NCBI RefSeq assembly: GCF_024502345.1
Contig: NZ_JALDNN010000001.1
DNA: 64,000 nt
Strand: one strand, 5' to 3'
DNA from: Escherichia coli
Lineage (GTDB): Bacteria > Pseudomonadota > Gammaproteobacteria > Enterobacterales > Enterobacteriaceae
Shown here: positions 11,913-27,362 of the stretch, piece by piece
Position numbering within the stretch: the stretch's first letter is position 1
Layout of the letters: every line of letters begins with the position of its first letter
Translations under genes and position numbers: made by a program
The notes under the pieces: model-generated
The model's database searches: none
The model's input: the letters and a program-made list of their open reading frames with translations, nothing else
Told to the model about the DNA's origin: nothing

Positions 11913-11982
11913 GACTTATATCACCTGTGTTTTGCGTGAGCCTGAGCCATACTGATATTTTTCCTCGCACAAAGGACTCGGC

Positions 11983-12591
11983 ATGAAACTCGTCGGTAGC
12001 TACACCAGCCCGTTTGTACGCAAACTTTCTATTCTGTTGTTAGAAAAGGGCATAACTTTCGAATTTATTAATGAACTGCCCTATAACGCGGACAACGGCG
12101 TGGCGCAATTTAACCCGTTAGGAAAAGTGCCGGTGCTGGTGACCGAAGAGGGCGAATGCTGGTTTGATTCGCCGATCATCGCTGAATATATTGAATTAAT
12201 GAATGTCGCTCCGGCGATGTTGCCGCGCGATCCGCTGGAGTCGTTGCGGGTGCGCAAAATTGAGGCACTGGCGGATGGCATTATGGATGCTGGGCTGGTA
12301 TCGGTGCGTGAACAGGCGCGTCCAGCGGCGCAGCAGTCTGAAGATGAATTGTTACGCCAGCGGGAGAAAATCAACCGCAGTCTGGATGTGCTGGAAGGAT
12401 ATCTGGTCGATGGCACACTCAAAACCGATACGGTCAATCTGGCGACTATCGCTATTGCCTGTGCCGTCGGATATCTCAATTTCCGCCGCGTTGCGCCAGG
12501 TTGGTGTGTCGACCGCCCACACTTAGTCAAACTGGTCGAAAACCTGTTTAGCCGCGAAAGTTTTGCTCGCACCGAACCGCCAAAGGCTTGA
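11983..12591 (+). CDS. yibF: Glutathione S-transferase family protein YibF
   Basis: 202-aa ORF recognised as YibF. Confidence 0.9.
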
Positions 12592-18989: not shown

Positions 18990-19085
18990 ATTCATTGCCT
19001 GATGCGACGCTTACGCGTCTTATCATGCCTACGGGAACCTGACCGTAGGCCGGATAAGGCGTACACGCCGCATCCGGCATAAACA
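18990..19085. repeat. REP/BIME palindromic elements downstream of aldB
   Basis: gcctgatgcgacgcttacgcgtcttatcatgcctac and gtaggccggataaggcgtacacgccgcatccggc, a typical inverted REP pair. Confidence 0.6.
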
Positions 19086-19509
19086 AAGCGCACGTTGTTA
19101 CAATTTACGTTTTAAACCTACGTGCGCAATAACCCAGACTACGCCAACAGAAGTGCGTTTCTGGGGCGTGTTTTGTCAGGAGTTTAATCTCGCGTTTCGA
19201 TGGTGAGCGGGCGAACCAGGCCGTAAATCACCATTGGTGATCCGAGGCCAATCAGCAATAAACGGTAGATAATTGAAGGTTTAATACGCTTAATCTGTAC
19301 TGTGGATGTTTTACTGGAGTTATTCATTAGTTTGGCCAATAGTTCCACTATTTCAATATGATAAACCTCGTCCTGTTGAAAAACCAGACAGCACATTTCA
19401 GAAAGTATATAAAAAACAATATGTCGTTATATAAATAAGGAAATTGCACTGCATCATGGCATTTCATAATATGCGTTAATTGTTCTTTTTTATATTCTTT
19501 GAGGGAAAT

Positions 19510-19833
19510 ATGTTCCTGGACTATTTTGCACTGGGAGTGCTTATTTTTGTATTTCTGGTGATATTCTATGGGATTATTATTTTACATGATATTCCCTACC
19601 TGATTGCTAAAAAACGTAATCATCCTCATGCCGACGCCATTCATGTTGCTGGTTGGGTGAGTCTTTTTACGCTGCATGTTATCTGGCCATTTTTGTGGAT
19701 TTGGGCCACGCTTTACCGCCCGGAGCGGGGATGGGGAATGCAAAACCATGACTCCTCCGTTGTGCAACTACAACAGCGTATTGCCGGGCTGGAGAAACAG
19801 CTCGCCGACATCAAATCCTCTTCTGCCGAGTAA
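19510..19833 (+). CDS. yiaW: Small inner-membrane protein YiaW (DUF3302), paralog of YibI
   Basis: Begins [21 protein letters not shown], 107 aa; near-identical N-terminal region to YibI. Confidence 0.85.
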
Positions 19834-19838
19834 TACTT

Positions 19839-20975
19839 ATGGATTTACTGATTATTTTGACCTATGTGGCTTTTGCATGGGCAATGTTTAAGATCTTCAA
19901 AATTCCTGTAAATAAATGGACCATTCCCACAGCGGCCCTGGGTGGCATATTTATTGTCAGTGGTTTAATTCTGTTAATGAACTATAACCATCCGTATACC
20001 TTCAAAGCGCAAAAAGCGGTTATTTCTATTCCTGTTGTCCCACAGGTGACAGGTGTGGTGATTGAAGTGACGGATAAGAAAAATACGCTGATTAAAAAAG
20101 GTGAGGTGCTATTTCGACTGGACCCGACGCGTTATCAGGCGCGGGTGGATAGGCTGATGGCGGATATCGTTACCGCAGAACATAAACAGCGGGCGTTGGG
20201 CGCAGAGTTAGATGAGATGGCGGCGAATACTCAGCAGGCAAAGGCCACGCGGGATAAATTCGCTAAAGAGTATCAGCGTTACGCACGCGGCAGCCAGGCG
20301 AAAGTAAACCCGTTTTCAGAACGCGATATTGATGTGGCGCGGCAAAATTATCTGGCGCAGGAAGCCTCCGTAAAGTCATCGGCGGCGGAACAAAAACAGA
20401 TCCAGAGCCAGCTGGATAGCCTGGTGTTGGGTGAACATTCTCAAATCGCCAGCCTGAAAGCGCAGCTCGCGGAAGCAAAATATAACCTTGAGCAGACGAT
20501 AGTGCGTGCGCCGAGCGATGGTTATGTGACCCAGGTGCTGATTCGTCCGGGTACCTATGCCGCGTCGCTGCCGCTACGTCCGGTGATGGTGTTTATACCC
20601 GATCAGAAACGACAAATCGTGGCGCAGTTCCGTCAGAACTCCTTGCTGCGCCTGGCTCCCGGCGATGATGCGGAAGTGGTATTTAACGCTCTGCCAGGCA
20701 AAGTGTTCAGCGGTAAGCTGGCAGCCATTAGTCCAGCTGTTCCCGGCGGAGCTTATCAGTCGACCGGCACCTTACAGACGTTAAACACAGCGCCGGGTTC
20801 AGATGGCGTTATCGCGACCATTGAACTGAATGAGCACACTGATTTGAGCGCTTTACCAGACGGTATTTACGCCCAGGTGGCGGTCTACTCTGATCATTTC
20901 AGCCATGTCTCGGTGATGCGCAAAGTGTTATTACGCATGACCAGCTGGGTGCATTACCTTTATCTCGATCATTAA
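19839..20975 (+). CDS. yiaV: HlyD-family membrane-fusion-like protein YiaV, paralog of YibH
   Basis: 378 aa, collinear with YibH at roughly 75 percent identity by eye. Confidence 0.85.
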
Positions 20976-21946
20976 TCTTCGCTTTCCGCCGCTTGTTCAG
21001 GCCGCAGTTGCTGCGACTGAGCAAGCTGGTGGCGAATTTCACGCAGCATTTCATCCAGCACATACTGGACCCGCCAGGGCTGGTATTCCCGTTTACGGAA
21101 GATAGCCACCAGATCCAGCCACCATTCATACGGGTGCTGAAAGCAGGGCACCAGCGTGCCGTCTTGCAGATCGCTCTGCACACTTTTGTCTGGCGCAAAC
21201 ACAATCCCCAGGTGATTTCGTGCCAGCTCCAGCGCCGATTGCGTGTTGTCGCAAACGTAATTTCCCTTCACGCGATAATCCCGCACCTCTTTACTCCCAG
21301 CGACGTTGAAGCGCCAGATATTCGCGTCGTCGATCATCATCGAGTCGATCAAAATACAGGAGTGATGTTCGAGTTCGTCAGGACGGCTAATGGGATGTTT
21401 CTCAAGATAGCGCTGGCTGGCATAAGCGGTTACGGCATATTGGGTAATAAAACTGGCAACCAGCGATTCATCTTTTGGTGGGGCATAGCTGATTAAAACA
21501 TCACAATCATCAGGAAATTCGACGCCTTCATAAAAGGCATTACGCTCAAGATTGCAGGTTTTTAGCGATAAGGTGATATCACCGATATCTTTAATTTTAT
21601 CGATTACATGTTTGGATAAATAGGTAATTATGCCGGTTGGGGCGTAGATGGTGACCCGACCACGTTTCTCATGCTTATAATCTGCAATAAAATTATTAAG
21701 CTGCTCGTTTCTGTCCAGCATGTCGTTGATGTACGGTAACAGCGCGGTACCAAAAGGTGTGAGCATCAGCTGCCGGGTGGTTCGGTCAAAGACTTTTAAA
21801 CCCACTTTTGATTCAAAATCAGCAAGGTATTTGCTGACGTTGGCCTGTGCGATGCCAAGTACAGTCGCGGCATGGCTGATATTTTCACTGGCAGCGATTA
21901 CCGAGATAATTTTTAACTCCCGGTACTTAAGTTGTAATTTTGTCAT
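20972..21946 (-). CDS. yiaU: LysR-family transcriptional regulator YiaU
   Basis: 324 aa with N-terminal HTH; convergent with yiaV, 4-bp stop overlap; divergent from yiaT. Confidence 0.88.
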
Positions 21947-22069
21947 CGCAACAGCCCAATTATATATAATTTTATATATTACTATATAAATATGAATCTT
22001 GCACCGGAGAAATTGTAAGCATTACTATGCCGATTCTTTTTTATCTTATTTTAAAATGGAATACCGGAC

Positions 22070-22810
22070 ATGTTAATTAACCGCAGTATTGTGGCGTTAT
22101 TTGCGTTGCCTTTTATGGCAAGCGCAACTGCTTCTGAATTATCCATTGGTGCTGGTGCGGCTTATAATGAATCGCCTTATCGCGGTTATAATGAAAATAC
22201 AAAGGCAATTCCGCTGATTAGCTATGAAGGTGATACTTTTTATGTTCGTCAGACCACGTTAGGTTTTATTCTGTCGCAAAGTGAAAAAAATGAACTTAGC
22301 CTGACCGCATCCTGGATGCCGCTGGAATTTGACCCTGCCGATAATGACGATTATGCCATGCAACAGCTTGATAAGCGTGATAGTACGGCTATGGCGGGGG
22401 GTGCCTGGTATCACCACGAGCGTTGGGGAACCGTGAAAGCCTCTGCAGCTGCGGACGTTCTGGATAACAGCAACGGCTGGGTGGGGGAGCTATCGGTATT
22501 CCACAAAATGCAGATAGGTCGTCTGTCGCTGACACCTGCGCTGGGCGTTCTCTATTATGACGAGAATTTCAGTGACTATTACTATGGCATTTCAGAGAGT
22601 GAGTCCCGTCGTAGCGGTCTGGCAAGTTATTCCGCGCAGGATGCCTGGGTGCCCTATGTCAGCCTGACGGCAAAATACCCGATAGGAGAGCACGTCGTAT
22701 TGATGGCGAGCGCAGGATACAGCGAGCTGCCGGAAGAGATTACCGACAGCCCGATGGTTGATCGTAATGAGAGTTTTACCTTTGTCACTGGCGTGAGCTG
22801 GCGTTTTTAA
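22070..22810 (+). CDS. yiaT: Outer-membrane protein YiaT (MipA/OmpV family)
   Basis: 246 aa with signal peptide and C-terminal aromatic residue (ends SWRF). Confidence 0.85.
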   Translation: MLINRSIVALFALPFMASATASELSIGAGAAYNESPYRGYNENTKAIPLISYEGDTFYVRQTTLGFILSQSEKNELSLTASWMPLEFDPADNDDYAMQQLDKRDSTAMAGGAWYHHERWGTVKASAAADVLDNSNGWVGELSVFHKMQIGRLSLTPALGVLYYDENFSDYYYGISESESRRSGLASYSAQDAWVPYVSLTAKYPIGEHVVLMASAGYSELPEEITDSPMVDRNESFTFVTGVSWRF

Positions 22811-22939
22811 TTCACCGGTGGAAGTCGGTGCGGCTGGCCTACGCTCTCGCACCGACTTGTAGGCCTGATAAGACGTGTTAAGCGTCGCATCAGGCAATGT
22901 GCACCCTACGTTGGATGCGGCGCGAGCGCCTTATCCAAC
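22811..22939. repeat. Terminator hairpin plus REP elements between yiaT and the GH127 gene
   Basis: 11-bp stem aagtcggtgcg / cgcaccgactt (22822-22858), then REP-like gtaggcctgataagacgtgttaagcgtcgcatcaggc and gatgcggcgcgagcgccttatcc. Confidence 0.55.
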
Positions 22940-24910
22940 TTACGGATGGCAATGCTTTTCCTCATTCACCCAGATCTTCATTTCGCCTTCACCCCGGTTA
23001 GCCCAGCTAAACCACGGGATAAAGGTCAGAGTTTGCGGCTGGCGTTTGGCTGGGGCATAGTCGTAATGCCACAACGGTTGTTGTTCTGGATTGCTCTGTT
23101 CATACCGGTAACCCGGTGCCTGGATTAAGATCTTATGGCTGAACAATCCCTTACCTTCAAATGTCGTAAATGGCGCATCGGCGGGCAGCCACAGATTATG
23201 CAGTGACTCGCCGTTGTCGGCCTGTTCCAGGCAATACACCAGCAGGCCGCGCTGAATCGCCACTTTTCCGGCGACGTGACGCACCAGCGGGTTACCGTAA
23301 ACGCGGCGTACCGGCATCGGCAAAGTCAGATTCAGCGTATCGCCCTCCTGCCATTCGCGGGTAATGTGCAAATACCCTTTACGAATATCCTGCTCGACCT
23401 CTTCCCCATTCAATATGATCTGCGGCTGTGTGCACCAGTCCGGCAGACGTAAAGCCAGCGTATGACGTACCGGCTGGGGCGATTCAACCGCAATCGTCAC
23501 CTGCTCCTGCCACGGATAGTTCCCGCTAACCCGCAGGCGCAGCGTGCCATTTTCTACCGGCACTTCCATGCTGTTTCCTGCGTAGATGTTGATATACAAC
23601 GCATCTTCACGCGGCGTGTAGAGATAATGACCAATCGAGGTCAGCACGCGGGCGATATTTGGCGGACAACAAGCGCAGCCAAACCAACGCTGGCGGATCG
23701 GTTTAACGTGATCGTAGATATGGTTGAATTTCAGCGATTTTGGATGTACTTCCAGCGGATTCACATAGAAGAAATGTTTGCCATCCAGCGCCATGCCGCC
23801 GAGCACGGTGTTGTACAGTGCGCGCTCCATCACATCGGCATATTGACTGTCGCCTTCCATTTCCAGCATTCGTCGGGCAAACATCATCAGGCCGATGGAG
23901 GCGCAACTTTCAGCGTATACCGTGTCATTCGGCAGATCGTAATCGCTAGTGAACGCTTCGCCGCTGCTTTGCGAGCCAATGCCGCCGGTAATATATAACT
24001 GACGCTGGGCCATATTGTTCCACAGCCGCAGGCAGTCCTGACGCTTGCTGTCATCGTGACTTAAACGCGCGAGATGCGCGACGCCGGTCATCAGATAGAC
24101 AAAACGTACCGCGTGACCGATGGCGGTTTGCTGTTGCGCAAGGGGCAAATGTGCCTGGCTGTAGGCTTTGTCTTTCACCATCCACGCCGGGCCGTAGGTG
24201 TGCCAGTGCGATGTCTGCCCGCGCTTTTCATATTCCTGGTCGTAATAGTGCGGTTGCGCACCACGCTGTTCGACAAAATAGTTCGTCAGCGCCAGGTAGC
24301 GCGGCTCTTCAGTCACTTCATACAGGCGCATTAGTGCCAGTTCAATTTCCGGGTGACCAGGATAACCGTGTAACTTACTTTCATCTGGACCAAATACGCT
24401 GTCGATATTATCGGCCAGGCGGCAAACGACCCCCAGCAAGCGCCGTTTTCCCGTGGCCTGGAAGAAGGCGACTCCGGCTTCAATCAGATGACCTGCGCAG
24501 TAAAGTTCATGACACTCCGCCAGATTGCTCCAGCGTTCTTCGGGTGCTTTTACCGTAAAGTAAGTATTGAGATAGCCGTCTTCGCATTGGGCGGAGGCGA
24601 TCAGTTCGATTACCTCGTCGGCGGTTTTTTCCAGTTCGGCGTCCGGCTTCTGGCACAGCGACCAGGCTACCGCTTCCAGCCATTTGGCGACGTCGCTGTC
24701 CTGAAACACCATCCCGTAAAATTCACCCTCCTGAAGTCCGGCGGCAATGCGAAAGTTTTCAATCGCATGGCTGGGTTCCGCTTCTGGGATACGATCGTTC
24801 AAGGCATCCCACTGATAAGGAATCACCACGTCGCGGACCAGTTGTTGGTACTGACCGAGGAACGGATCGCTGACCGTCAGTTTATGCAGATCGACTTCCG
24901 AAATGTTCAT
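22940..24910 (-). CDS. Glycoside hydrolase family 127-like enzyme (beta-L-arabinofuranosidase family, DUF1680)
   Basis: About 656 aa from ATG at 24910 with AAGGAG RBS. Contains E-x-C (ESCAS) and, about 77 residues later, CACCPPN, matching the spacing of the Zn-binding/catalytic Glu338/Cys340 and Cys417/Cys418 of HypBA1 as I recall it. Confidence 0.7.
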   Translation of the reverse strand: MNISEVDLHKLTVSDPFLGQYQQLVRDVVIPYQWDALNDRIPEAEPSHAIENFRIAAGLQEGEFYGMVFQDSDVAKWLEAVAWSLCQKPDAELEKTADEVIELIASAQCEDGYLNTYFTVKAPEERWSNLAECHELYCAGHLIEAGVAFFQATGKRRLLGVVCRLADNIDSVFGPDESKLHGYPGHPEIELALMRLYEVTEEPRYLALTNYFVEQRGAQPHYYDQEYEKRGQTSHWHTYGPAWMVKDKAYSQAHLPLAQQQTAIGHAVRFVYLMTGVAHLARLSHDDSKRQDCLRLWNNMAQRQLYITGGIGSQSSGEAFTSDYDLPNDTVYAESCASIGLMMFARRMLEMEGDSQYADVMERALYNTVLGGMALDGKHFFYVNPLEVHPKSLKFNHIYDHVKPIRQRWFGCACCPPNIARVLTSIGHYLYTPREDALYINIYAGNSMEVPVENGTLRLRVSGNYPWQEQVTIAVESPQPVRHTLALRLPDWCTQPQIILNGEEVEQDIRKGYLHITREWQEGDTLNLTLPMPVRRVYGNPLVRHVAGKVAIQRGLLVYCLEQADNGESLHNLWLPADAPFTTFEGKGLFSHKILIQAPGYRYEQSNPEQQPLWHYDYAPAKRQPQTLTFIPWFSWANRGEGEMKIWVNEEKHCHP

Positions 24911-24920
24911 CTTGTGCTCC

Positions 24921-26321
24921 TTAAGGCTGTACATGACGCTGACGCAGGTCGGTAGCTATGCGTGACATCATAGGATTATTGAGTTTGCAAAAGCGGATCG
25001 CCCCTGCCAGCAGCAGGTGGAATAGCGCAGGCAGTAATGTTTCCATCGCCGCGATCCCGCCAAGCGAACTGGCGGTCTGGTTTTCCACGCCAGGCTGGTA
25101 GGCGACAAAAATAAACAGCAGGCTGATGATCCCGGCGCTGGAGGCCCAGGCCAGCTTGATGAAAAACAGATTGAAGGCGAAGTTCATGCCGGAAGAACGT
25201 ACGCGGGTTTTCCACTCGCCGTAGTCATCGGCAAAGGCCATCAATGAGAAGTGCAGTGGCAATGTGAAGCCAAGAATTACGCCATTACCGAGGATCACCG
25301 CCAGCCACAGCGTTTGATAAGCCGGGCCGGAGGGCAGGAACCACATCAACACCGCCAGCGCAGCGAGGAGCAGGTTGGTGTAGTAGTAAATTTTGACGGT
25401 ATCGAAACGCCGCGTTAACGGGCTGACAATCACCGAGCCGATAATGGAGGCGAAGGTGACCATGGTGAAGAACAGCGACGTGTAGCCCGTACTGCCTTGT
25501 AAGACGTAGGTAATGAAGTACATATACCCACCGCCGCGAATGTTAAAGACGTTAATCAGCAGGAAAGACATGACCAGCATCAGCAGCAGTTGGTCGTTGT
25601 TCCGCAGCCCGGCAAGATGTTCGCGCAGGGTAAATTTCCCCATTGTGGAGAGCGGCACCCGTTCACGAACCCAGAAGAAACAGCACAGGAACATCACCAC
25701 GGCAATGGCGCACAATACCCCGACGCCCAGTTGATAGCCGCGTGCAGCGTTGCCCTGACCGAAGAGATCTACCATCCACGGTAAGCCTACCGAAACCAGA
25801 AATCCCGCTACGCCGCAGAGAACGAATCGCCAGGGCTGGCAGGAGATCACTTCATTGTGGCGGGTGGTCATGGTGTTGATCAGCGCGCAGTACGGTACGT
25901 TGATGGCGGTATAACCGACTGAAAGGAGCAGGTAAGTACCGAACGCCCAGGCGATTTTTACTCCCATGCTGGCATCTGGCACGGTGAACGTCAGGATGCC
26001 GATAATGCCGATGGGAATGGCAATCCATAGCTGCCACGGACGAAAGCGCCCCCAGCGACTTTGCGTCCGGTCGGCAATGACGCCCATCACCGGGTCGGAG
26101 ATGGCATCAAACACGCGCAGTGCAATAAACAGCGTGCCAACCAGCGCCGGAGTTAATCCAAAAACGTCGGTGTAGAAAAAGGTGAGAAAATTCATGATCA
26201 GGCAAGTTATTACGGTGCCGCCTGCGTCACCCAGGCCGTAGCCTATTTTTTCCCGTACAGATAACGCATCGTCAATTTTACCTTTAGCGATATCAGCGGT
26301 AGTAATCGGTGTAGAGGTCAT
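24921..26321 (-). CDS. Glycoside-pentoside-hexuronide (GPH) family sugar:cation symporter (MelB-like)
   Basis: 466 aa, multi-TM; N-terminal GYGLGD motif typical of GPH transporters; immediately upstream of and co-directional with the GH127 gene. Confidence 0.75.
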
Positions 26322-26546
26322 AGATATTCCTCGTGAATAGGGAGCAATTTTTAGTTTTATTGAAATGACCTGATTAATTCTGCCGTGAACGGGAATATCA
26401 ACAAGGCGAGAAAAGAGTAAAAAAAGGTGACGATTCCGACCTGAATTTAAAAGTGTGAAATGGATCAGGTGAAATTAATGTTTTTGATTAATAATCAAAA
26501 GGTAATGTGTTTAATCATTAATGAATAAGCGGGAAATTACATATCA
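26322..26546. promoter_or_regulatory. Divergent promoter region between the GPH-GH127 operon and the AraC-family regulator gene
   Basis: 225-bp AT-rich intergenic region between divergent starts; contains a partial CRP-like motif tgtgaaatggatcagg. Confidence 0.4.
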
Positions 26547-27362
26547 ATGCTCGAATTATCCATGACGTTACCGATTAAAGTGCAAAATGGTGGATTATTT
26601 ATTTCCCGTGGCGTAGGGAGGCATCCTGCAAGGCGGCTGGAGTCATGGGAAATTATCTTTGTCGAAAAAGGTCGATTAACGATTCAGGAAGAAGAACGGA
26701 TATTTCTGGTCGATGCGGGAGAGAGTTTATTACTCTGGCCGAACCGACAACATGTTGGGGTGGAGGATTTTCCCGCCGATCTCAAATTTTACTGGCTGCA
26801 TTTTGAGGTTAAAGCGCCGGACAACGACCCTCGCTGGCTTACTCATCTTAGCGTGCCGCAACAAACGAAGGTTGTCGATCCGCAGGCGCTGGTGGCCCTG
26901 TTTCGCCAGTTCTTAAGCGAACAGGAAAAGCATCAACGCACTCCGGCGCTGGAGTTTATTGTGCTGCTCATTTTGCAGCAGCTCACCCGTGACGCGCGTC
27001 TTGATGAACAGGCCGATGGCGCAGGCACCACCCTTGCCTGGAAAGCGCAGAAACTGATCCGCACGCAATATCATCGCCCGCTTTCTACGGCGCTTCTGGC
27101 CCGCGAGCTGTACTGCAATGCCGATTATCTTGGGCGCGTCTACCGGCGGGTGTTTCATCTGACGTTAACAGAAGCAATCCATCGCCAGCGGGTGCGCGAA
27201 GCCGAAAAGCTGTTAATTAGCGAAGCGCGATCGCTCACGGAAGTGGCGGCGTTGTGCGGGTTTAATGACGTTGGCTATTTCCGGCAGATTTTTCGCAAAC
27301 ACACCGGTTTAACGCCAGCAGCGTGGAAGCGGCGTTACAGCAAGGAACATATCAATTCGTAG
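26547..27362 (+). CDS. AraC/XylS-family transcriptional regulator
   Basis: 271 aa; cupin-like N-terminal half and C-terminal double HTH (RELYCNADYLGRVYRR ... VGYFRQIFRKHTGLTPAAWKRRY). Confidence 0.8.
   Translation: MLELSMTLPIKVQNGGLFISRGVGRHPARRLESWEIIFVEKGRLTIQEEERIFLVDAGESLLLWPNRQHVGVEDFPADLKFYWLHFEVKAPDNDPRWLTHLSVPQQTKVVDPQALVALFRQFLSEQEKHQRTPALEFIVLLILQQLTRDARLDEQADGAGTTLAWKAQKLIRTQYHRPLSTALLARELYCNADYLGRVYRRVFHLTLTEAIHRQRVREAEKLLISEARSLTEVAALCGFNDVGYFRQIFRKHTGLTPAAWKRRYSKEHINS

Follow-up and report, generated by a model that had tools for sequence, protein, structure and literature searches.

Convergent genes that meet or overlap at their ends have been described in several settings. 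In Escherichia coli, 58 convergent overlaps have been counted, and 4-bp overlaps of the CTAA, TTAA, CTAG or TTAG type form the modal class of convergent overlaps (PMC2174442). Pairs with overlapping transcription units have also been catalogued as excludons, which are defined by reciprocal expression. The convergent 'excludome' of MG1655, obtained with ExcludonFinder, comprises 165 convergent excludons; the yiaU-yiaV pair is explicitly one of them, being listed for 50% or more of the 58 transcriptomes (PMC12288877). Two kinds of hairpins have in turn been described at such gene ends. Stem-loops that lack a U-tract and are followed by sequence with more C than G mark Rho-dependent 3' ends, also inside downstream genes (PMC6061677). 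Bidirectional terminators that encode hairpins, but are non-intrinsic and Rho-independent, have been reported between convergent E. coli genes (bioRxiv 10.1101/2022.10.23.513370), and in the model proposed for them the hairpin is a pause site that sets where head-on collisions take place (Ju et al. 2019; Wang et al. 2022 preprint).

The yiaV-yiaU junction of E. coli can be compared with each of these systems. The overlap of its stop codons, as first noted, matters little, since it belongs to the commonest convergent class and is present in every E. coli annotation; neither the overlap or excludon idea nor the link between YiaU and yiaT is new. The earlier reading of this junction passed over a strong RNA hairpin, conserved in evolution, that is located just 3' of the yiaV stop codon. 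This hairpin is a modest addition: a terminator-like RNA structure, supported by covariation, in a coding tail where two convergent genes overlap.

Layout of the locus and the stop-codon overlap

The window, that is, the whole 64-kb stretch of E. coli DNA that was analysed, contains the following features around the two gene ends:

19510..19833, plus strand: yiaW, DUF3302 inner-membrane protein of 107 aa, opening the yiaWV operon (open reading frame and RefSeq)
19839..20975, plus strand: yiaV, HlyD-family membrane fusion protein of 378 aa, TAA stop at 20973-20975
20972..20975: overlap of the coding sequence ends, TTAA, 4 bp, two TAA stops on opposite strands
20972..21946, minus strand: yiaU (csuR/lpsR), LysR-type regulator of 324 aa, stop at 20974-20972
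21947..22069: divergent control region between yiaU and yiaT, 123 bp, from the open reading frame coordinates
22070..22810, plus strand: yiaT, MipA/OmpV-family outer membrane protein, divergent target of YiaU

The preliminary description had presented yiaW-yiaV as an operon and yiaU as a LysR-family gene divergent from yiaT, and our analysis agrees on all these points. Only 5 nt separate yiaW from yiaV, the synteny of both genes is kept in 23 of 23 loci, and a published list has 'yiaWV' as an operon that H-NS binds and that has a constitutive RpoD promoter (PMC3946193). YiaW matches Pfam DUF3302 (E=1.8e-43) and the Pfam match of YiaV is to HlyD/CusB-type membrane fusion proteins; YiaV is 77% identical to its paralogue YibH. 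YiaU matches both HTH_1 and LysR_substrate. The latter match stops at residue 302, and residues 303-324 form a variable tail beyond it, the orthologues ranging from 309 to 325 aa with tails of varying length. The divergent arrangement with yiaT, whose product matches MipA (E=2.4e-52), follows from the open reading frame coordinates and leaves the 123-bp spacer. For this spacer, binding of H-NS and constitutive RpoD promoters facing either way have been reported (PMC3946193), and a consensus scan placed promoter-like sites on its minus strand, at 22076..22048 and 21996..21969.

By its two domains, its 123-bp spacer and its published effect on yiaT, YiaU belongs to the LysR regulators with a divergent target. 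Whether YiaU regulates yiaT, a check proposed in the preliminary description, can be answered from the literature: yiaT went up by 2.8 log2 in a yiaU knockout (PMC9068703), and control of the divergent yiaT by YiaU (CsuR/LpsR) is already published. The sign of this control is unsettled, as the knockout derepresses yiaT whereas the K-12 annotation says 'activator'. The main text of the knockout study, with its differential-expression table, names neither yiaV nor yiaW (PMC9068703).

The last codons are CAT TAA for yiaV and GAT TAA for yiaU, and both stops lie inside a single [C/T]TA[A/G] tetramer (TAA 20973-20975 on the plus strand and TAA 20974-20972 on the minus strand). The 4-bp overlap noted earlier is thus present in the open reading frames as well as in the RefSeq annotation. 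An identical overlap is annotated by RefSeq in strain Ecol_AZ147, and the same overlap is found in K-12 MG1655 (RefSeq; yiaU 3751992..3752966 on the plus strand, yiaV 3752963..3754099 on the minus strand). The overlap does exist, but it is commonplace and has been catalogued before. As a tail-to-tail TTAA overlap with both stops inside the tetramer, and with an origin consistent with the stop-codon-mutation model, it is a textbook member of its class and differs from it in nothing. What comes in addition at yiaV-yiaU is that gain or loss of the yiaU stop is coupled to a base-pair partner in the hairpin.

We compared 23 yiaV-yiaU loci from Escherichia, Citrobacter and Pseudocitrobacter. The stop-to-stop distance in these loci was -7, -4 or +16 to +48 bp, the C. 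freundii complex having a spacer of 16-48 bp between the two stops, and the 4-bp overlap was not conserved across genera. The C-terminus of YiaV, LLRMTSW[VM]HYLYLDH*, is near-invariant in the 23 loci, with the V/M difference in three Citrobacter strains only, and the YiaU tail varies in both length and sequence. In the Citrobacter freundii complex a yiaU TAA stop lies within one arm of the hairpin and YiaU has mostly 316-317 aa. In Escherichia the equivalent codon is CAA (Gln318) and the frame continues for six sense codons (A319-D324), until yiaU stops at the TAA made by the reverse complement of the yiaV ...T TAA end. Because this reverse complement provides an in-frame TAA past the earlier stop of yiaU, the overlap requires no more than chance, and its lack of conservation means that there is no sign of the overlap as a selected regulatory device. 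The distance between the two stops follows the shifting stop codon in the variable tail of YiaU. The TTAA overlap would have come about incidentally, by drift of the yiaU stop in a C-terminal tail free of constraint, and would not in itself be a regulatory device.

The hairpin past the yiaV stop codon

The hairpin and the sequence that follows it were delimited as follows:

20978..21036, plus strand: extended form of the hairpin in Escherichia, some 24 bp, from 3 nt past the yiaV stop
20991..21026, plus strand: conserved core hairpin, 12 bp, arms 20991-21002 and 21015-21026
21037..21348, plus strand: C-rich, G-poor stretch directly 3' of the hairpin and antisense to yiaU, where Rho might load

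The extended hairpin occupies yiaU codons 304-323, at 3 nt from the yiaV stop and 3 nt before the yiaU stop, and the core lies 16 nt downstream of the yiaV stop, within yiaU codons 307-319. The stem-loop is GC-rich, as is that of an intrinsic terminator. In the yiaV-sense RNA it folds with a minimum free energy of -33.3 kcal/mol (z = -4.8) and in the yiaU-sense RNA with -27.3 kcal/mol (z = -2.9), and it also forms within a 301-nt context fold. Only three sites in the 64-kb window reached -30 kcal/mol or less among 42,634 folds of 50 nt; the junction hairpin is one of them, and another is a REP element after aldB. A REP/BIME identity was rejected for the junction hairpin, as the REP-derived Rfam family naRNA4 was placed at 19000-19128 and 22862-22940 only, and no Rfam family matched the hairpin at E<=1. 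A repeat family was rejected as well: the 141-nt junction is single-copy, with a median of one place per E. coli genome. The junction is missing from about 30% of complete E. coli genomes.

In the alignment of the 23 sequences from the three genera (alignment A1), columns 50-61 pair with columns 74-85 to form the 12-bp core, with 92.3% of the cells paired, whereas slid-register controls gave a pairing of merely 25-49%. Compensatory double changes were observed at 6 of the 12 core pairs, the covariation score was reached by none of 500 shuffles, and RNAalifold yielded the same helix. With compensatory substitutions beyond those of the controls, the hairpin belongs among conserved structured RNA elements. 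It was seen at all 23 yiaV-yiaU junctions; it was absent from all five yiaU loci that lack yiaVW, and from the sequence 3' of the paralogue yibH. The number of independent compensatory events is about 6-7, not 22.

Other arguments for conservation were considered and set aside. The outer stem, formed by 20978-20990 with 21027-21036, is not kept beyond Escherichia and Pseudocitrobacter, the outer 5 pairs of the extended hairpin being lineage-specific, so that conservation is claimed for the 12-bp core only. Conservation of the arm in non-coding sequence could not be used either: no more than 2-3 nt of it extend past the stop in the C. freundii complex, and the case for the hairpin therefore rests on covariation. 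Finally, the YiaV homologues of other genera that are 75-79% identical, and that could have served as examples of yiaV without yiaU, are YibH orthologues (the Trabulsiella copy is found in an mtlA-yibIH-yibF-selAB context), which confounds the comparison.

Pairing is preserved through replacements in YiaU that involve both arms. Ala309/Gln318 (GCT/CAA) in some loci corresponds to Thr/stop (ACT/TAA) in others, and in Pseudocitrobacter the change Q310->V is joined with E317->Q, pairing being retained. Structural selection at the hairpin thus appears to trade off visibly with protein sequence and to shift the stop codon. The yiaV-sense fold is the stabler one in 19 of the 23 sequences, by 4-8 kcal/mol in most overlapping lineages. 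G.U wobbles are more frequent in the yiaV-sense (14 vs 6 on the other strand), and C->U changes among E. coli and Escherichia variants retain pairing in the yiaV-sense alone. As the sequences are related, such differences are no more than suggestive of a preference for the yiaV-sense strand.

It had been stated that no terminator intervenes between the two genes. This is correct for a canonical terminator, but the conserved and covarying stem-loop 3 nt past the yiaV stop had been overlooked. A consensus scan for a hairpin followed by at least 5 T in 8 nt did not find a hairpin-plus-U-tract terminator at the junction and did not flag the junction hairpin. The nearest calls, at 21165..21180 on the plus strand and 20417..20400 on the minus strand, are weak 6-bp stems within the partner genes. 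A U-tract was absent on either strand in 23 of 23 orthologous junctions. After the extended stem the E. coli sequence reads UUUCAC, with 3 U only, and after the conserved core UGGUGGCG, without any U; the flanks of the hairpin are UGGUGGCGAAUUUCAC in the yiaV-sense and GGCGGAAAGCGAAGAUUAA in the yiaU-sense.

Possible roles of the junction hairpin

Directly downstream of the hairpin, the C/G ratio is 1.25-1.53 in four successive 78-nt bins (21037-21348), as compared with 0.54-0.94 farther on, and the value of C minus G over this stretch (0.093) ranks at the 97th percentile when every 312-nt window of the two strands is considered. The junction thus combines a stable stem-loop, devoid of a U-tract or an upstream A-tract, with a rut-like excess of C over G downstream. 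It shares these features and a terminator-like energy with the Rho-dependent protective 3' stem-loops (PMC6061677), and like some of these it falls within coding sequence of the gene that follows. On the yiaV-sense strand the junction hairpin is a candidate member of this group, which is marked by steady-state 3' ends at the stem base and by read-through that bicyclomycin increases. The hairpin also resembles the bidirectional terminators in being located at a convergent boundary, in folding on both strands and in being unlike an intrinsic terminator. However, these are found in intergenic gaps and the junction hairpin in coding sequence, and collisions are expected to be rare between yiaU and yiaV, which are both weakly transcribed.

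Taken as a whole, we consider it moderately probable that the overlap is incidental and that a functional hairpin at the 3' ends limits read-through. The functional element at the junction would then be the conserved hairpin without a U-tract, 3-16 nt past the yiaV stop. We infer that it defines the 3' ends and the way in which transcription terminates there: it would form the mature 3' end of the yiaWV mRNA, resistant to exonucleases, and perhaps also the 3' end of the yiaU mRNA, whose stop sits in or just 3' of the stem, and it would pause RNA polymerase at the gene boundary. Just past the hairpin the polymerase might be released by Rho by way of the C-rich antisense RNA, which is untranslated, or by head-on collisions when both genes are on. 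Since the polymerase would pause at the boundary and be released past the hairpin, the hairpin would restrict mutual antisense read-through and not enable it.

We propose, as a tentative possibility, that the hairpin is a bidirectional pause and termination element that lacks a U-tract and is embedded in coding sequence, that its need for pairing has shaped YiaU, and that it insulates the regulator gene from the abutting operon. The first base of the stop/Gln318 codon is predicted to pair with that of codon 309 (Thr/Ala), and selection on the RNA structure would couple gain or loss of the stop to an amino-acid change nine codons upstream. This coupling would set the length of YiaU as well as the presence of the gene overlap. 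If confirmed, the junction would be a natural test case for U-tract-less hairpins that end convergent transcripts, by Rho trimming or polymerase collision, and also for the origin of gene overlaps.

The same junction could be read as an excludon or 'regulatory knot', with uninsulated transcription of yiaWV and yiaU, mutual repression through transcriptional interference or through RNase III, which would cut the duplex, and feedback on the YiaU-controlled yiaT. Overlapping gene ends without a canonical intrinsic terminator, the place of the pair among the MG1655 convergent excludons (PMC12288877), a bicyclomycin-sensitive transcript antisense to yiaV (Adams et al. 2021) and the effect of YiaU on yiaT (PMC9068703) would be expected in this case. 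We nevertheless regard it as unlikely. The overlap is not conserved and gives way to a spacer in the C. freundii complex, the study of the yiaU knockout does not name yiaV or yiaW in its main text, and a strong boundary hairpin that is conserved by covariation suggests limited read-through and argues for insulation. Moreover, the pair was listed on transcript overlap only, whereas reciprocal expression defines excludons, and the overlap of the coding sequences makes this listing nearly automatic and silent on the length of read-through. The read-through from yiaWV antisense to yiaU that had been anticipated is backed by a published transcript overlap, but not as to its extent. A conventional Rho-independent terminator of yiaWV, embedded in the yiaU coding sequence, would explain the stable GC-rich stem-loop right after the yiaV stop and the U residues after the E. 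coli extended stem, and 19 of the 58 E. coli convergent overlaps do have a predicted one inside the partner gene (PMC2174442). With 3 U after the extended stem and none after the core, a negative scan, and a U-tract in 0 of 23 orthologous junctions on both strands, such a terminator is improbable.

We also give little credit to the idea that the hairpin serves the yiaU mRNA and not yiaWV, for example as a 3' stabiliser or as a translational pause at the end of the yiaU reading frame. The fold of the yiaU-sense RNA is itself substantial, and the 3' arm holds the yiaU stop in the C. freundii complex, four of whose sequences have the yiaU-sense fold as the stabler one. However, yiaU loci without yiaV have no hairpin in any of the five cases, and both the greater stability of the yiaV-sense in the remaining 19 sequences and the wobble-type substitutions favour the yiaV-sense. 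It is very improbable that nothing at the junction is functional and that both the inverted repeat and the overlap arose by chance where two genes abut, a reading that covariation already disfavours. Overlaps of 4 bp between convergent genes arise easily (PMC2174442), the genes are poorly expressed and silenced by H-NS (PMC3946193), and the junction is missing from a sizeable share of complete E. coli genomes; against this stand the extreme fold energy, reached at so few sites of the window, and the compensatory changes that keep pairing in several lineages despite amino-acid replacements.

Published transcripts at the yiaV-yiaU boundary

Under laboratory conditions yiaU, yiaV and yiaW are bound by H-NS and barely expressed (PMC3946193). 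The three genes are missing from the SMRT-Cappable-seq supplementary tables. The Term-seq supplements of Adams et al. 2021 contain one bicyclomycin region, on the yiaU-sense strand, and no 3' end for yiaV or yiaU. Two observations from published data go against the hairpin-limited read-through that we favour: the sole Rho-sensitive coordinate in the literature maps to the yiaU-sense strand, and the excludon listing in at least 50% of the 58 transcriptomes implies that some transcript overlap exists. The first of these also counts in favour of the model, as it documents Rho at work at this locus, on the yiaU-sense strand.

The Rho-sensitive coordinate was assigned to the following region:

20347..20417, minus strand: Rho-coordinate region in yiaV, yiaU-sense, matching the published bicyclomycin-sensitive site

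Supplementary file 2 of Adams et al. 2021 gives this site as K-12 3753583 on the plus strand, 'antisense yiaV', with a Rho score of 4.98 (p = 1.9e-8). The position corresponds to about 20355 in the window, about 620 nt into yiaV on the yiaU-sense strand. With bicyclomycin, reads downstream of K-12 3753583 exceed those upstream, a pattern that could reflect an internal antisense promoter and not read-through from yiaU. On the minus strand of the region the consensus scan placed a weak hairpin with a T-run at 20417..20400 and a promoter-like site at 20374..20347, and the local C/G ratio is 1.42 at 20431-20354.

The yiaV-yiaU overlap and its variation

The convergent genes yiaV and yiaU have in common the TTAA at 20972..20975:

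19839..20975, + strand: yiaV ORF, 378 aa, ending ...GAT CAT TAA
20972..21946, - strand: yiaU ORF, 324 aa, ending ...GAA GAT TAA

The window is chromosomal E. coli DNA. A 3.6-kb query spanning the junction was 99.2% identical to strain Ecol_AZ147, and from ~12,000 to 50,000 the annotated genes of this strain run colinear with the window, to the base. RefSeq annotates the identical 4-bp overlap in this strain and in K-12 MG1655 (yiaU 3751992..3752966, yiaV 3752963..3754099), in agreement with the ORF ends, so that the preliminary description of the stop overlap was correct. Pfam identified YiaW as DUF3302, YiaV as an HlyD/CusB-type membrane fusion protein, YiaU as HTH_1 plus LysR_substrate and YiaT as MipA. 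The yiaW-yiaV gap is 5 nt, the pair was adjacent in every case, and yiaWV has been handled as one operon under an RpoD promoter of its own (PMC3946193). The overlap is ordinary and previously published. Four-base overlaps of the CTAA, TTAA, CTAG or TTAG type are the modal class of tail-to-tail overlap, and one survey counted 58 convergent overlaps in E. coli (PMC2174442). The seven annotated convergent junctions in the first 50 kb of the window have gaps of 459, 218, -4, 129, 31, 150 and 195 bp.

Both stops were placed in each of 27 yiaU loci from other species. In this sample the yiaT-yiaU-yiaV-yiaW cluster was found in Escherichia, Citrobacter and Pseudocitrobacter; Kluyvera, Serratia oryzae and one C. 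amalonaticus strain had yiaU without yiaVW, yiaT being mostly kept. In Escherichia, Pseudocitrobacter and two C. amalonaticus strains the stop-to-stop distance was -4 bp; three other Citrobacter strains had -7 bp, and the whole C. freundii complex +16 to +48 bp. The YiaU tail, which lies beyond the end of the Pfam LysR_substrate match at residue 302, varied in sequence and length (309-325 aa), while the YiaV C-terminus was uniform (LLRMTSW[V/M]HYLYLDH*). Because distance and tail vary against a constant YiaV end, these comparisons indicate that the overlap itself is under no detectable selection; its extent appears to be set by where the poorly constrained YiaU tail meets a stop. Within E. coli, the junction (20930-21070) was present in 3774 of 5426 complete genomes (in 3630 of them at 99% identity or above) and the 3.6-kb yiaW-yiaT block (19300-22900) in 3935, with at least 80% coverage in 3724; about 30% of complete genomes thus lack the cluster.

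A covarying hairpin past the yiaV stop codon

Regional folding predicted a long hairpin starting 3 nt past the yiaV stop codon, in the YiaU tail past the LysR domain:

20978..21036: extended hairpin, within yiaU codons 304-323
20991-21002 / 21015-21026: core arms, GCTTGTTCAGGC / GACTGAGCAAGC, within yiaU codons 307-319

The inner stem of the core is CGCAG-TTG-CTGCG. The fold had -33.3 kcal/mol (z = -4.8 relative to dinucleotide shuffles) in the yiaV-sense (+ strand) RNA and -27.3 kcal/mol (z = -2.9) in the yiaU-sense (- strand) RNA. Among 42,634 overlapping 50-nt folds covering both strands of the 64-kb window, just 12 reached -30 kcal/mol, and these clustered at three sites, one of them the junction hairpin and another the REP element that follows aldB. 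Just downstream of mtlA (7961..9874, - strand), the third (7753-7802, - strand) holds the most stable 50-nt fold of the window (-34.7 kcal/mol) and is likely to be a further REP-type element. REP/BIME-type palindromes (Rfam naRNA4) just after aldB (19000-19128) and just after yiaT (22862-22940; 66 bits) make up part of the remaining very stable hairpins around the locus. The junction hairpin is single-copy and had no Rfam match, and was rejected as a REP or a member of a known Rfam family.

We aligned 23 yiaV-yiaU junctions in yiaV-sense, the core occupying columns 50-61 and 74-85. RNAalifold recovered the helix, and 92.3% of the cells in the 12-bp core held standard pairs; the outer stem extension was lineage-specific. 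Neither the observed covariation score nor the percentage paired was reached by any of 500 column shuffles, and shifting the 3' partner by 1 to 3 columns reduced pairing to 25-49%. Compensatory two-sided changes occurred in 6 of the 12 core pairs, representing about 6 or 7 independent events as against 22 cells counted. They include G-C to A-U in the C. freundii complex (pair 54-81) and U-A to C-G in one C. amalonaticus strain (56-79). Pseudocitrobacter has C-G to G-C at 57-78 and A-U to U-A at 58-77, and several further changes fall at 60-75 and 61-74. In yiaU such substitutions are non-synonymous (Pseudocitrobacter YiaU reads QLAV...PPQQ, E. coli QLAQ...RPEQ) and they are matched across both arms, which argues that the constraint acts on RNA pairing and not on the YiaU protein. 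At pair 54-81, the C. freundii complex has the T of the yiaU stop TAA opposite the A of ACT, a Thr codon; in Escherichia the two bases are the C of CAA (Gln318) and the G of GCT (Ala309). The stop, and hence the overlap, is therefore gained or lost as one half of a compensatory pair. This neat coupling of RNA pairing, stop codon and gene overlap is the main interest of the hairpin.

The hairpin was present in all 23 convergent yiaV-yiaU junctions and was not found in any of five yiaU loci without yiaVW. The best local fold at the latter was -10 to -17 kcal/mol; the exception, Kluyvera cryocrescens, carries a canonical GC hairpin plus U-run that is unrelated. No hairpin was found after the paralogue yibH in the window (MFE -13.1 kcal/mol, z = +0.6). 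In 19 of 23 sequences the yiaV-sense fold was the stabler, the margin being 4-8 kcal/mol in most overlapping lineages, and non-Watson-Crick cells comprised 14 G.U in yiaV-sense versus 6 in yiaU-sense, a strand preference that is suggestive given that the sequences are related. The Escherichia variants are C-to-U changes that can be wobble-paired in yiaV-sense only, such as TTCGC to TTTGT in the outer stem, or 20990 and 21014 in strain 1218KP. Co-occurrence with yiaV, together with yiaV-sense stability and wobbles, speaks for a function in the yiaWV transcript.

The paralogous DUF3302 plus HlyD operon yibI-yibH lies 8 kb upstream, at 10411-11912 (YibH and YiaV are 77% identical). Homologues in other genera, for example Trabulsiella, stand in an mtlA-yibIH-yibF-selAB context, so that yiaWV seems to be a lineage-restricted duplicate, inserted beside yiaU-yiaT.

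Transcript ends and antisense transcription

The preliminary description had seen no intervening terminator. This holds for a canonical one, since on neither strand is the hairpin followed by a U-tract in any of the 23 sequences and a consensus scan made no call, but not for the conserved hairpin right behind yiaV. The yiaV-sense sequence downstream of it (21037-21348) is rich in C and poor in G (C/G 1.25-1.53), its C minus G being at the 97th percentile among all 312-nt windows. Rho-dependent 3' ends include ones within downstream coding regions, and in the proposed model a stem-loop stops 3' exonucleases, with a rut site just past it (PMC6061677); the junction hairpin with its C-rich downstream region matches this known kind. 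Its anatomy is likewise in line with the bidirectional terminators of convergent E. coli genes, which encode hairpins, do not look intrinsic and are Rho-independent, and whose hairpins are proposed to pause polymerases and so cause head-on collisions at the gene boundary (bioRxiv 10.1101/2022.10.23.513370). As far as we checked, the junction hairpin is undescribed, though apparently of known kinds.

One survey lists yiaU-yiaV among 165 convergent "excludons" seen in half or more of 58 MG1655 transcriptomes (PMC12288877); since the CDSs overlap, a coverage threshold flags the pair almost automatically, and the listing does not tell how far the transcripts overlap. A bicyclomycin-sensitive region antisense to yiaV has been reported at K-12 3753583 (+) (Rho score 4.98, p = 1.9e-8; Adams et al. 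2021). It maps to about 20355 in the window, ~620 nt beyond the yiaU stop, and adjoins a C-rich bin. Two features lie by it inside yiaV:

20417..20400, - strand: weak hairpin plus T-run
20374..20347, - strand: promoter-like site TTTACG-16-GATAAT

With bicyclomycin, this region had more reads in the downstream than in the upstream window (Adams et al. 2021), so that the signal may come from an internal antisense promoter instead of yiaU read-through. The coincidence of the two features with the reported coordinate hints at a Rho-limited antisense transcript that begins inside yiaV. For the yiaV-sense strand we found neither a published 3' end nor a Rho region; the scarcity of such reports can be put down to the locus being H-NS-bound and near-silent under standard conditions (PMC3946193).

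YiaU has been characterised twice, as LpsR (PMC9068703) and as CsuR (Shimada et al. 2022). The LpsR study placed ChIP-exo sites at waaP and adeP and found yiaT up 2.8 log2 in a yiaU knockout, bearing out the suggestion that YiaU regulates yiaT. RefSeq names the K-12 product "transcriptional activator YiaU"; the sources thus disagree on the sign of its action.

From the observed anatomy, conservation and composition of the hairpin, we infer roles in 3'-end formation and termination. The overlap would be a neutral outcome of stop-codon drift in the YiaU tail and the hairpin the selected feature. It would give the yiaWV mRNA a protected 3' end and probably do so too for the mRNA of yiaU, whose stop falls in the 3' arm or 3 nt past the stem. 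Polymerase paused by the hairpin at the gene boundary might be released by Rho acting on untranslated C-rich antisense RNA, or by collisions when both promoters fire. On balance we lean towards a hairpin that restricts mutual antisense transcription instead of allowing it.

The regulatory reading proposed earlier for the junction keeps the overlapping transcripts of the excludon list and the control of yiaT by YiaU, but not an unprotected junction, and a true excludon-type interference circuit seems unlikely. Quite improbable is a conventional intrinsic terminator, which the stable stem would suit and the missing U-tracts do not. We give a similarly small chance to action on the yiaU mRNA alone: the yiaU stop lies in or next to the stem, but yiaU loci without yiaVW lack the hairpin. 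Beside the compensatory changes, a complete lack of function is hardly credible.

Neighbouring features

The stretch between yiaT and the sgb/araD genes (22940-27362) encodes a GH127 glycoside hydrolase, an MFS transporter and an AraC-family regulator; in K-12 this place holds nothing but the pseudogene remnants ysaC and ysaD. The yibF gene follows yibH after 70 bp (~11912-11983). In the compared Ecol_AZ147 locus (4952-11983), ~7 kb of rhs/polymorphic-toxin, yibA, yibG and immunity-gene remnants separate the two. RefSeq annotates a 47-aa hypothetical protein at 19184-19327 (- strand), between aldB and yiaW and beside the REP element.
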